Source: Dictyostelium discoideum (lineage: Eukaryota). Taken from it: a stretch of DNA of 64,000 bases. The translations under genes were made by a program, and so were the position numbers. Below are positions 1 to 28,474 of the stretch, one piece after another. Numbering within the stretch: the stretch's first letter is position 1; every line of letters begins with the position of its first letter. Where the stretch lies: NCBI GenBank assembly GCA_000004695.1, contig CM000150.2, positions 2,400,001 through 2,464,000 of the forward strand, written 5' to 3'. Under the pieces are notes generated by a model. The model was not told the origin of the DNA. It searched no databases and saw only the letters and a list, made by a program, of their open reading frames with translations.

Positions 1-2819
1 ATTCATCACCATTACAACTTAAACATGATTTTCCCGATCACATCATCTCTGTCACCAAACGAGGAAATGGTGTAATCATCATTAACCATAACCCAAACAC
101 ACTCAAACTCAAACACATATCAACAATTGATGGTAGAGCTATTTTAGCAGACGTTATATTTCCAAATCAATTACCAATTGGTATTCTTGGAATTTACGCA
201 CCAGCATCAAATAATACCATCAAAAAGAATTCATATGCAACTTCACTACAAACACTTCTCCACAACCACTCAACAAACCCAATACCAAACCAATCCCAAC
301 ATGTATCTATTATCGCAGGAGATTTCAACTGTATCCACAACGACAATTCACTATTAGATGATATTATCCAATCCTACACATACCAACACCATCTAATTGA
401 TCAAGGTGAATTTAAAAACACTCCAACTCATACACATGGTAACAGATTAGATAGAATATATACTCAATACAATAGAATAGACCCTGAAAATATATATACT
501 CAAGTCCACCAAATTCCATCTTCATTATCAGATCATAATCCAATATCAACAACATTTTCTTCACCTTTTCAAATAAATAAACATAAGAAAAGATGGATAT
601 TATCACCTGGTACTGCAAATGACCATGAAGCAATCAATATTATCAATCATTTAATAACTAATCACAATAACACATCAATCAATCAATTTACAAATTGGTC
701 AAAAGTAAAATCAAAAATTATTAAAACTCTAAAAAACTATCAATATAACAAAGACAAACAAACTCAACGTGCAAAACAAATACTATTAGAAAAAGCAGCA
801 AAATTCAAACATCTTGAAGAACAATGCATCGCTGAATACAATATTATATGTAACAAAAACAAATTACATCAAAACCACACAAACATATTAAAAAAACATA
901 TAAATGGAGAAATACCTAGCAAGTATCTATCAGCAATACTAAACAAAAGATCAAAAGATGCAAAAATTGAATCAATCCAATATGGTAACATCATTACATC
1001 CGACCCCGACCAAATTGAAAATGCGTTTGTTGAATTCTACACAAATCTATATAGCTTACAAATATGTTGTCCAATTACTCACCAGCTCATGCTAAACACA
1101 TGGCCCATCATAAAAAATGAATATTGGAATGGTTTAGACTCACCATTTATACAAGATGAAGTTGAAGCTGCAATTAAAACCTGTAACCCCAACAAATCAC
1201 CCGGTCCAGATGGCGTTACAAATGCATTCTACATTAATCATTTAAACCAAGTTAAACCAATTCTCACTACATTATTCAACGATATACTAGAAAATCCTCA
1301 CCACATCACAACAGAATTCACAGAAGGTCTTATACACACAATATACAAGAAAGGCAACCCCTTACTCATATCAAATCGTCGTCCCATTACACTTCTAAAC
1401 ACTGATTACAAGATCCTCTCAAAAGTAATCAATGCACGTCTTCTGAGAATACTTCCTTTCATCATCAACAACAACCAAACTGGTTTCGTACCCCACAGAT
1501 TCATCATAGACAACATCATCAACATCAATGAATTAATCAACTACCTCAAATCTAAAAACCTCCCTGGTATCATCACACTATTTGACTTCTTTAAAGCATT
1601 TGATTCTATCTCTCACGATAGCATTAAAAGAACATTAATTCATATTGGTATACCAATAAAATTAATAAATTTAATCCACAAGCTATTATCTGACTCACAA
1701 GCAAAAATTTCAATTAATGGTAAAACGACCAGAAAATTCGATATTAAAAGAGGTGTAAAACAAGGTGACCCAATCTCAGCCACTTTATTTGTAATTGTAA
1801 TTGAAATATTAGCAAGAACAATAAATGCAGACAATTCAATAATTGGATTACCAATTTCACCCAATCCACAAATTAAAATTAAATTTACCCAATTTGCAGA
1901 CGACTCTACAACATACAACATCAACTACGAACAACAACAACAATCAATCAAACATTTCGATAATTTCTGCGCTTCAACATCATCATCATTAAATTTTGAC
2001 AAAAGTGCAATAATAGAAATCAACCCCCACAAAATCACTGATAAACACATAATAAACAACATTCCACAATCAAAAAGAATTCCAATAACCAAAAAAGATC
2101 AATCAGAAAGAGTTCTTGGCTATTTCTTTAATCATAATGGTTTACATAGGAAATTACCAGAAACAATGAAAACACTGATTAAATCATTAGTGCTATGGAA
2201 AACTAGTGGCACAACATTAAAAACAAAAACAACCATCATAAACACCTACTCACTATCACCAATAACATATTTATCATACCTTGAAGAATTTACAAAAGAT
2301 GAAGAAATTCAAATTAATAAATTAATCTCATGGTTTATGAATTCTCCCGCAAATTCTGAATCACCAACTCTCGATACCAATTCCATTGAAAAAAACACAT
2401 CAACCATCCATTCACGTGCAAAAATACCTTTGATGTGTTATGATAGATCATTAAAACCATTAAAAGAAGGTGGTTGGGGTATGTGGAATATACAATTACG
2501 ACAAGTTGCTCAAAAGATTTGGATATACAACAGATTTTTACAAATGCATAAATCTGCAAACAATTCAATATACATGATAAGTTGGATGGATCAAATCATC
2601 AACAAATCAATCTCTTCTCCATACCTTATAAAAATCAAAAAAGAATGGGAAAACTATGCAACTCAAATTGGACATCTAAAAGATAAAGTTCAAATCCTAC
2701 AACCAATATTAACAAAAAACCAACCCTCTCAAACATTAAACACAAATAATATTTCACTACCACCAACACTCAAAGAAATCTACTCGACAATACTAAACAA
2801 TCACCAATGCAAATCAAAA
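1..2819 (+). CDS. Non-LTR retrotransposon ORF2 fragment (AP-endonuclease domain, then reverse transcriptase), probably the TRE5-A family. The 5' end is cut by the window edge and the 3' end is lost in the N gap.
   Basis: There is a continuous frame from base 3 with no stop. Residues include IIAGDFNC and SDHNPIST (endonuclease/exonuclease/phosphatase motifs), then the RT core (NRRPITLLNTDYKILSK, FDFFKAFDSISHD, RGVKQGDPIS, QFADDS). The ORF track only begins at the first ATG (1089), but the frame is open upstream. The RT is the same subfamily as the 25800-27457 copy and differs from the TRE3-type ORF2s. Confidence 0.75.
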
Positions 2820-2919
2820 NNNNNNNNNNNNNNNNNNNNNNNNNNNNNNNNNNNNNNNNNNNNNNNNNNNNNNNNNNNNNNNNNNNNNNNNNNNNNNNNN
2901 NNNNNNNNNNNNNNNNNNN
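2820..2919. other. Assembly gap (100 N)
   Basis: A run of n characters. The flanks are retroelement ORFs on opposite strands, so the gap joins two different element copies. Confidence 0.95.
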
Positions 2920-3725
2920 GGTGGTTCGATAGGTTTTTCTGATTTTGTTTTAATTTCTTGATTGTTTATCGATTGTGTATTGATCTCATTCTCTATTCTT
3001 GTTAGTTCATCTACGTTTTCTAGTGATGCTTCTATTACCTTTTGAGCTGTATCATCTAGGGCCATAAATGTTTTATCATTAGATGAGGATGTGATTGGTG
3101 GGATAATGATTGTTCTTTTTCCTTGTTTTGGTATTTGTTCTGATGTAGATTGTGGTTGTTGTTCATCTGATTGTTTTTTATTTTTGTTTTCTTCTTGATT
3201 TTCTGGTAATGAGGTTTGATCTCTCCATCCTTTGTTGGAGTGTCCAATTAATGTTAGATTGTCTAGTTCAATGATAGTGTCAAATTCTTCTACGACTCTT
3301 TTCACTGTTTTGATAATTAGAGTTTCGCCTTTAATTTCTGATTTAATTAGTTTACATCCTTCATTTTCTATTACCCATTCTATTTCTGTGAGTGATTTAT
3401 ACCAATCAAAATCTGTATACATATTTTTTGGTCTTATAGTGGTTATAAATTGTCCTTTTAATTCTGCATCAAACATATTTACAAAATAGATTACTGTACT
3501 AATACTGTCTGTGAGAATTTTGAATGTATTATTACTTTTGATTAAAACATCTTTTTTGTCCAAACTTTTTTCTAAATCTTTTTTTATTTTATCGTCTGGT
3601 TCGTGATTGATGTTTATGACGTATTTGAATTGTTTTTTTTTTAATTGAGTTTTATCCACAATTTCGCTTATTTTTTGTAGGCATTTGTGTTGCTTAATAT
3701 TTGTGGTGTTGTTTGTGATTTTCAT
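2920..3725 (-). CDS. TRE5-A-type ORF1 (MKITNNTTNIKQHKCLQKISEIV...), C-terminal end lost in the N gap
   Basis: The same ORF recurs at 25241-25771 (C-terminal part ending ...EPPSPYNTPIK). Its first ~90 codons are also present in each B-module copy (12385-12660, 27593-27865). The track ORF 2814-3725 runs through the Ns. Confidence 0.6.
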
Positions 3726-3848
3726 TTTATTTTCTTTCTATCTTTTTTATTTTTCTTTAAAAAGTTAAAAATCTGGAAATTTTCTAATTAACTTGGTTCC
3801 CAAGTTTTTTTTTTTTTTTTTTTTTTTTTTTTTTTTTTTTTTTTTTTT

Positions 3849-27457: not shown

Positions 27458-27968
27458 ATAAAAAAAAAAAAAAAAAAAAAAAAAAAAAAAAAAAAAAAAA
27501 AAAAAAAAAAAACCTGGGAACCCAAGTTAATCAGAAAATTTCCAGATTTTTAACTTTTTAAAGAAAAATATAAAAAATAGAAAGAAAATAAAATGAAAAT
27601 CACAAACAACACCACAAATATTAAGCAACACAAATGCCTACAAAAAATAAGCGAAATTGTGGATAAAACTCAATTAAAAAAAAAACAATTCAAATACGTC
27701 ATAAACATCAATCACGAACCAGACGATAAAATAAAAAAAGATTTAGAAAAAAGTTTGGACAAAAAAGATGTTTTAATCAAAAGTAATAATACAATTCAAA
27801 ATTCGAAACAAAAAAAAAAAAAAAAAAAAAAAAGTAAACTAACCCCTCTTTTAGAGACCCTGTAAAAAAAAAAAAAAAATAAAATAAAATGAGATCTAAC
27901 ATCTCAAGGAGAAGCAACTAATAATTGCGTTATCCAATTCAAAAAAAAAAAAAAAAAAAAAAAAAAAA

Positions 27969-28082
27969 CCAAATGTGTAATACACTTTGCTAAGGTGTCA
28001 TCGAAAACCAAATGGGTAATAAACTTTGCCAAGGTATCATCGAAAAATATTTGGTGATACACTTCGCTAAGGTGTCATTGAA
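27969..28082 (-). repeat. Three tandem ~39-bp tRNA-Ser leader/A-box units in reverse orientation, abutting the poly(A) end of the TRE5-A copy
   Basis: ccaaatgtgtaatacactttgctaaggtgtcatcgaaaaccaaatgggtaataaactttgccaaggtatcatcgaaaaatatttggtgatacacttcgctaaggtgtcattg is the RC of the unit seen at 13344-13461. Confidence 0.55.
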
Positions 28083-28474
28083 AAATAAACCACCACAAGA
28101 CTAATTTTTTAATTAATAATTTTTTTTTTAATTGTTTTATTGTTTTTTTTTTTTTTTTTTTTAAGACTGTGGCGCTGACTATAATAATTTTTGAACCTTT
28201 ATTGAAATATAATTAAAAAAATACAAAAAATAAAAATAATTAGTAAAGTGACTGTTTTTTTATTTTTATAAAAATATTTTATAATATAAGTTGTTTTCTT
28301 TATTTATTTGTTTATTTATTTATTTTAATTTTTTTTTATTTTAAAAAAAAAAAAGTTTAAAACTTTTAAAATTATTTAAACTTTAAGAATTATTGGAGTT
28401 ATTTGGAATATTATAAAACAAAAAAAAATTACAAAGGTGGGTGGATATGTGCAATTTATTATAAAAATTATTAT

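Follow-up and report, generated by a model that had tools for sequence, protein, structure and literature searches.

Why does retrotransposon sequence crowd around every tRNA gene at one end of a stretch of the Dictyostelium discoideum genome, and at such regular distances from those genes? We analyzed positions 2,400,001–2,464,000 of contig CM000150.2 (assembly GCA_000004695.1), a 64,000-nt stretch of chromosome 1 of strain AX4, hereafter called the window, in which ARAGORN predicted four tRNA genes, all within the first 28.1 kb. Retrotransposons of the TRE5 and TRE3 types, which belong to the class without long terminal repeats (non-LTR), made up 68% of positions 1–28,100, and the 36 kb from 28.1 to 64 kb contained neither a tRNA gene nor any TRE sequence. 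We conclude that the region is almost certainly a cluster of tRNA-gene-targeted non-LTR retrotransposons whose integration was guided by the RNA polymerase III (Pol III) complex. A previous sequence-only reading of this DNA had proposed Pol III-guided integration of TRE5 and TRE3 elements, and this interpretation is supported by positions and orientations that match the published rules, with corrections of detail only. It has been known since 1989–1999 that TRE5 and TRE3 target tRNA genes, and what they do in this window is that known behavior and no new biology.

The tRNA genes were validated with covariance scores against Rfam RF00005 (threshold 29 bits). The tRNA-Thr(AGU) gene at 4737–4808 (+) scored 65.5 bits, and the two tRNA-Ser(GCU) genes, at 14216–14296 (+) and 24793–24873 (−), scored 61.1 bits each. 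The internal promoter boxes seen were an A box, TAGCA(A/T)AGTGG, and a B box, GGTTCRA. An external B (exB) box with the sequence GGTTCGATTC lies at 4835–4844 (+), starting 26 nt past the 3′ end of tRNA-Thr, and another lies at 14325–14334 beyond the plus-strand tRNA-Ser gene. The fourth gene, at 11874–11960 (−), is a tRNA-Trp(CCA) with a 13-nt intron that scored 44.3 bits in a local search. In bacterial mode ARAGORN called this gene tRNA-Leu(CAA), a call we rejected as an intron artefact. The Rfam alignment placed CCA at positions 34–36 within the anticodon loop C32-U33-CCA-A37, followed by the 13-nt intron, and the same 87-nt gene in D. cf. discoideum, with one intron substitution, received a Trp(CCA) call; on these grounds we classify it as tRNA-Trp. 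A single intron base (A44 vs T) flips the ARAGORN call between Leu and Trp, and the gene also went undetected in an Rfam scan of the entire window with default gathering settings. The four tRNA genes of the sequence-only reading, including Trp, were borne out, and all of them scored above the threshold (44.3–65.5 vs 29 bits).

Each of the four tRNA genes had a TRE5-A copy upstream, oriented head-to-head with the tRNA gene and with its 5′ end 47–52 bp away. These 5′ ends are at 4689 for tRNA-Thr (47 bp), 12010–12013 for tRNA-Trp (49–52 bp), 14168 for tRNA-Ser(+) (47 bp), and 24923 for tRNA-Ser(−) (49 bp). Elements with A-module arrays transcribed away from the tRNA genes had already been recognized here, but at 42–46 bp, an offset that came out too short because the element ends had been slightly misplaced. 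The published distance for TRE5 is 47±3 bp upstream of tRNA genes (range 37–90 bp) in opposite orientation (PMC5911963, PMC5006619, PMC5391098).

Family assignment relied on three full-length TRE5-A.1 copies (L007–L009) taken from another D. discoideum assembly, hereafter the second assembly, in which 3 to 11 A-module units are followed by open reading frame (ORF) 1 of 444 aa, ORF2 of 1047 aa, a B module, a C module, and oligo(A). Two of these reference copies sit 48–50 bp from tRNA-Val and tRNA-Tyr genes. The window pieces shared 96–100% identity with the L008 copy, except for an older remnant at 13466–14168 (87–95%), and the window ORF2 shared a 90% cluster with DDB_G0269056, which is ‘TRE5-A ORF2’ in dictyBase naming (PMC12405889 Table 2). 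A motif search found three occurrences of the C-module end AATTGCGTTATCCAATTC with A(n) directly after it, and the B module was present at both 5′ and 3′ positions. This agrees with the published TRE5-A structure, where the 5′ untranslated region (UTR) has one or more A modules of ~200 bp plus a B module of ~290 bp, and the 3′ UTR has a second B module, a C module of 134–137 bp, and oligo(A) (PMC3159450). From this sequence evidence we identify the upstream elements as TRE5-A non-LTR retrotransposons. The family was formerly named DRE and has variants A.1 and A.2; the window copies share with it the A, B, and C modules, the 444-aa ORF1, oligo(A), target-site duplications (TSDs), and the head-to-head upstream site. 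We saw no difference at the family level, but the individual copies are unusual, with one A-B-C mini-derivative and two copies that contain an internal antisense segment.

The copy at tRNA-Thr (2920–4689, −) is the 5′ part of an element that is of A.2 type in the second assembly (L002) and 98% identical to the TRE5-A.1 copy of L008. Its A-module array occupies 3823–4689 (4.4 copies of 199 bp by self-comparison and TRF), its B module spans ~3515–3822, and the ORF1 start codon at 3725 lies inside B. Completed from L002, this ORF1 encodes 444 aa and 51.3 kDa, in line with the published size of 51 kDa (PMC5911963). The element runs into a stretch of Ns, and its continuation in L002 (ORF1-B-C-oligo(A)) gives the published TRE5-A.2 layout AB-ORF1-BC (PMC3159450). 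At tRNA-Trp, the 12010–12748 (+) copy is an ‘A-B-C’ deletion derivative with 1.5 A modules, two fused B modules, C, and A15. The remnant at 13466–14168 (−) was absent from the earlier list of elements; from its low coordinate upward it has polyA(8), C, an internally deleted B, 38 nt of A module, and an inverted 307-nt piece of ORF2 (13862–14168), and its TSD is imperfect (TTCCTTAACAAC / TTCCCTTGACAAC at 13454–13465 / 14170–14182). The copy at tRNA-Ser(−), 24923–27968 (+), is a mosaic bounded by the TSD CCAAATGTGTAA at 24908–24919 / 27969–27980. Here 1.65 A modules in sense orientation (to 25251) are followed by antisense ORF1 and then, again in sense, by the 3′ half of ORF2, B, C, and A28. The number of tandem A modules varied from 1.5 to 11 among the TRE5-A copies seen (about 1.5, 1.65, 3.4, 4.4, and ~10.5), among them the arrays at L009:194–2253, L008:1587–2280, and 3823–4689 of the window.

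The upstream offsets bear directly on whether targeting has to be invoked at all. TREs might integrate at random and persist only where they landed in harmless intergenic DNA beside tRNA genes. In favor of this view, genes are densely packed in the D. discoideum genome, 68% of the first 28.1 kb is TRE-derived, and purifying selection against insertions into genes is plausible. Selection of this kind cannot, however, yield 5′ ends within 47–52 bp in a fixed orientation at four tRNA genes, since the chance of four 5′ ends falling in a 6-bp interval with the right orientation is P ~3e-14. The tRNA-free 36 kb also has intergenic DNA, yet no TRE settled there. De novo integration assays in effect refute the idea: TRE5-A inserted at 47±3 bp upstream in 80% of 1,003 tagged events, compared with 59% of the copies in the reference genome (PMC5391098). 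We therefore consider random integration followed by selection very improbable, and retain integration guided by the Pol III complex.

The downstream side of the tRNA genes carried elements of a second class. Six TRE3-type insertions from three families were tied to three of the four tRNA genes, all of them in the orientation of the tRNA and with oligo(A), and five of the six had perfect TSDs of 13–16 bp. Pfam detected Exo_endo_phos (APE endonuclease) and RVT_1 in the TRE3-type ORF2, followed by a CX2C...H...C motif. According to published work, TRE3 insertions share the tRNA orientation and lie 14–305 bp downstream, relying on either the internal or the external B box (PMC5911963, PMC5006619, PMC5391098). 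The sequence-only reading had placed downstream TRE3-type elements in tRNA orientation, about 85 bp after an exB box and about 100 bp after tRNA-Ser, and our measurements of 87 nt and ~95–113 nt uphold this. Its description of all three listed elements as having two ORFs holds for the one at 20062–~24700 and not for those at 4932–7537 and 10900–11841, which are 5′-truncated ORF2 pieces. The copies at 10093–10845, 19004–20026, and 24555–24626, as well as the fragment at 1–2819, are additions to that list.

Behind tRNA-Thr, a copy of a family we call X (copy a, 4932–7537, +) starts 123 nt past the tRNA gene and 87 nt past the exB box at 4835–4844. It is 5′-truncated, comprising ORF2 aa 333–1147 and oligo(A), and is flanked by the 16-bp TSD GGTTATTTCCTAAAAT at 4916–4931 / 7538–7553. 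Family X has an ORF2 of 1147 aa that belongs to a 55-member protein cluster, and has four copies in the window (a–d). Behind tRNA-Trp are two elements in tandem. The nearer is a TRE3-A-type 3′ fragment (10900–11841, −) with pol aa 1000–1275, the 3′ UTR, and A23, which begins 32 nt past the tRNA 3′ end and has the TSD T12AATT at 11842–11857 / 10875–10890. Behind it sits copy b of family X (10093–10845, −), with ORF2 aa 954–1147, 3′ UTR, and oligo(A); its TSD, GAAAAGATAATGAAAT, is at 10846–10861 / 10077–10092, which corresponds to +47 to +62 before the nearer insertion.

Three further insertions accumulated behind tRNA-Ser(−). Copy c of family X (19004–20026, −; ORF2 aa 871–1147, 3′ UTR, A16) has the TSD CTTCATTTGGGTA at 20027–20039 / 18991–19003. 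The next element, Y (20062–~24700, −), is a full-length TRE3 with an A14 tail and an approximate 5′ end ~95–113 nt past the tRNA gene. Its ORF1 runs from an ATG at 24679 to 23664, and its ORF2 (20227–23676, −; 1149 aa) is in the −1 frame with a 13-nt overlap, an arrangement likewise described for TRE3-A (PMC5911963). The Y ORF2 has the endonuclease, reverse transcriptase, and zinc finger order (APE-RT-ZF) and a CKICNNIIRDPYTHLFIDC motif, and is 100% identical to DDB_G0269266 of D. discoideum AX4. Copy d of family X (24555–24626, −) consists of the final 24 nt plus A48, with the 14-bp TSD GTATTCAATGAAGA at 24627–24640 / 24541–24554. This stub is nested in ORF1 of Y and splits that ORF ~150 nt from the tRNA gene. 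The nesting gives the insertion order as Xc, then Y, then Xd.

Another TRE3-A-type ORF2 fragment (pol aa 54–992) lies at 1–2819 (+), with 99.7% tblastn identity to protein P0065 and a Pfam RVT_1 domain; it is bounded by the window start and an assembly gap, and its tRNA gene is outside the window. This fragment and the one at 10900–11841 are 97–99.7% identical to a 1275-aa GenBank ‘pol’ protein, AAD43057.1, which bears no TRE name; by sequence, the 1275-aa pol family is probably TRE3-A. The ORF2 proteins of X and Y are 62% identical to each other and ~35% identical to the 1275-aa family. By abundance and length, X and Y could be TRE3-B or TRE3-C, with Y at ~4.55 kb compared to the published TRE3-C consensus of 4734 bp (TRE3-A 5229 bp, TRE3-B 5279 bp, TRE3-D partial). 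The window elements share with TRE3-A (formerly Tdd-3), -B, -C, and -D the overlapping ORFs, the APE-RT-zinc finger order, oligo(A), 13–16 bp TSDs, insertion 87 nt after an exB box, and tandem build-up at one tRNA gene, and they differ in the insertion of an X stub into Y; the subfamily names used here are provisional. Copies related to X and Y were also downstream of a tRNA gene on the same strand in D. citrinum, D. dimigraforme, and D. cf. discoideum, and at another D. discoideum locus. That other D. discoideum locus also had a TRE5-B-like element upstream.

Several observations weigh against the interpretation or leave it less complete. We found no TSD for element Y and no clear TSD for the TRE5-A copy at 12010–12748. 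The 32-nt spacing at tRNA-Trp is closer than the usual ~100 bp, although it falls within the TRE3 distance range of 14–228 bp (PMC5006619 Table 1). Neither the literature nor the protein clusters supplied a TRE3 subfamily name for X or Y, whose protein clusters are named only ‘hypothetical protein’ or ‘pol’. Finally, no TRE3 was present downstream of the tRNA-Ser gene at 14216, despite its exB box at 14325–14334. The claim that each tRNA gene is associated with two retroelement classes thus stands for three of the four genes and fails for this tRNA-Ser, which has TRE5-A only. Published genome-wide figures give at least one TRE at 61% of tRNA genes and both classes at 13%, with 52/79 tRNA genes occupied on chromosome 1. 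Compared with 13%, both classes at three of four genes is dense (binomial P = 0.008), but such a neighborhood is expected somewhere, because the genome has ~403 tRNA genes.

The two tRNA-Ser genes raise the question of whether the association was inherited instead of arising anew at each gene. The tRNA genes could be parts of mobile units, either similar to short interspersed elements (SINE-like) or transduced, or whole blocks could have spread by segmental duplication. The tRNA-Ser paralogues do share at least 27 bp of 5′ flank and an array of 39-bp repeats, and three peroxiredoxin paralogues show regional duplication. However, the TSDs bracket the elements and leave the tRNA genes outside. 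Three different isoacceptors are involved. Moreover, the tRNA-Ser loci differ in their TRE5-A copy, its TSD, and its age (87–95% vs 99–100% identity to TRE5-A.1), TRE3 elements occur at just one of the two, and the TSDs and junctions at the paralogous loci differ. Inheritance is hence scarcely credible as a source of the pattern, and separate, Pol III-guided insertions account for it better.

We also considered misassembly of a highly repetitive region as the source of the nests and inversions, and possibly of some of the juxtapositions. The window has an assembly gap of 100 N at 2820–2919, and its TRE copies are 97–100% identical to each other, which invites collapse. The second D. discoideum assembly, GCA_054883475.1, is free of Ns, supplies the sequence missing from the gap, and matches 2920–27486 colinearly at 99.7% identity, so the arrangement is not a product of misassembly. 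It keeps both antisense segments and all of the nests, and the novel junctions have microhomology with TSDs flanking the elements. Of the explanations weighed here, we regard misassembly as the most remote. The gap content in L002 (reverse-complemented, 1–2675) is the 3′ half of the TRE5-A.2-type element, with the 444-aa ORF1, B, C with a BC deletion, and oligo(A). The gap also hides an older C-module-like remnant with a piece of A module, along with AT-rich unique sequence of at least 1.3 kb. Within the DNA fetched from the second assembly, the TRE3-A-type fragment of 1–2819 was not adjacent to the gap region.

How the proteins would bring about this arrangement is suggested by published work. 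The families, offsets, orientations, TSDs, and oligo(A) tails are observations from this locus, whereas the protein contacts are inferred from the literature. The Pol III complex on a tRNA gene would have determined where each element inserted, and insertion would have proceeded by target-primed reverse transcription. For TRE5-A, targeting has been attributed to binding of the ORF1 protein to TFIIIB and depends on the B box (PMC5911963, PMC5391098), and a contact of this kind could place the copies upstream. TRE3 placement, tens to ~150 bp downstream in the tRNA orientation, may be measured from the internal or external B box, a position that would imply the TFIIIC side of the complex. Repeated insertion at the same tRNA gene would produce the tandems and nests. 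In the compact genome of yeast, Ty3 (and Ty1) also locate safe integration sites by means of the Pol III transcription complex (TFIIIB/TFIIIC) on tRNA genes. In contrast, the yeast elements belong to the unrelated LTR class and insert by integrase instead of target-primed reverse transcription; Ty3 integrates at the transcription start, and yeast has no downstream class. With exact junctions, TSDs, a nesting order, and a filled gap, the window illustrates tRNA-gene targeting cleanly and at unusual density, and could be used in teaching or as a benchmark for transposable element annotation.

Two of the TRE5-A copies were sense/antisense mosaics, each inside a single TSD pair and both present in the second assembly. 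In the copy at 24923–27968, the antisense piece is ORF1 nt 265–830 at 25245–25809, after which the sense strand resumes from ORF2 nt ~1495 to its end, followed by B and C. The junctions overlap by 7 nt (TTTATTG) and 2 nt (AA), and the copy is 99–100% identical to active TRE5-A.1. In the copy at 13466–14168, the inverted 307 nt correspond to ORF2 nt ~2246–2558 and sit at the 5′ end of an A-B-C element, with AAAGA at the junction. In both mosaics an inverted internal or 5′ segment is joined at microhomologies of 2–7 nt inside one TSD pair, which resembles the 5′ inversions of human and mouse L1 that arise by twin priming. Unlike those, the 24923–27968 copy has a sense-antisense-sense order, and the 13466–14168 copy joins an A-B-C RNA with an ORF2 piece foreign to it; twin priming in its simple form, on a single RNA, accounts for neither mosaic. 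Antisense RNA is produced from the TRE5-A C module (PMC3159450, PMC4559204). One possible cause of the mosaics is a template switch by the reverse transcriptase onto this antisense RNA, and twin priming or DNA-level inversion are possible alternatives. We found no description of internal antisense segments of these kinds in the TRE literature searched. Should such mosaics turn out to be general, they would be informative about how TRE5-A reverse transcription deals with the element’s own antisense RNA.

Both tRNA-Ser(GCU) genes were preceded by tandem 39-bp units in 2.9–4 copies. Each unit combines nt 1–17 of tRNA-Ser(GCU) (from the +1 G through the A box minus its last G) with 22 nt of 5′ flank. 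The arrays are at 13343–13459 and 14177–14215 (+) and at 27965–28084 (−), and the TRE5-A copies and their TSDs lie within them. The tRNA-Trp gene has a partial upstream copy of flank plus nt 1–32 at 12801–12850 (−), and tRNA-Trp of D. cf. discoideum has a copy of nt 1–25 located 85 bp upstream (L005:13289–13313). None of ten other tRNA loci examined had 5′ copies of the 39-bp type. Nothing relevant emerged when the literature was searched for Dictyostelium tRNA genes that are partial or truncated, and we found no description of 39-bp arrays. There is a small chance that either the mosaics or the 39-bp arrays arise as a by-product, so far undescribed, of what takes place at Pol III complexes. 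Should the arrays turn out to be general, they would be relevant to the instability of the genome at Pol III gene 5′ ends. The 16–25 nt directly upstream of tRNA-Trp and both tRNA-Ser genes share the motif ACC(C/A)ATTTGGTTTTC(G/A)AT (11961–11985, 14189–14215, and 24874–24900), which was absent at tRNA-Thr and the other tRNA loci examined.

Further repeats were noted in the region. A ~1.2-kb repeat, W, was considered as a mobile element and rejected, as it consists of three paralogues of a peroxiredoxin (AhpC-TSA/Redoxin) gene with 87–90% identity, at 7990–9128 (+), 15349–16375 (+), and 28292–29481 (−). They show that genes near the tRNA genes have been duplicated locally. The second of these paralogues and the RabT2 gene (16810–17466) lie between the arms of an inverted repeat (14958–15270 / 17482–17785), which are ~310 bp long and 84% identical.

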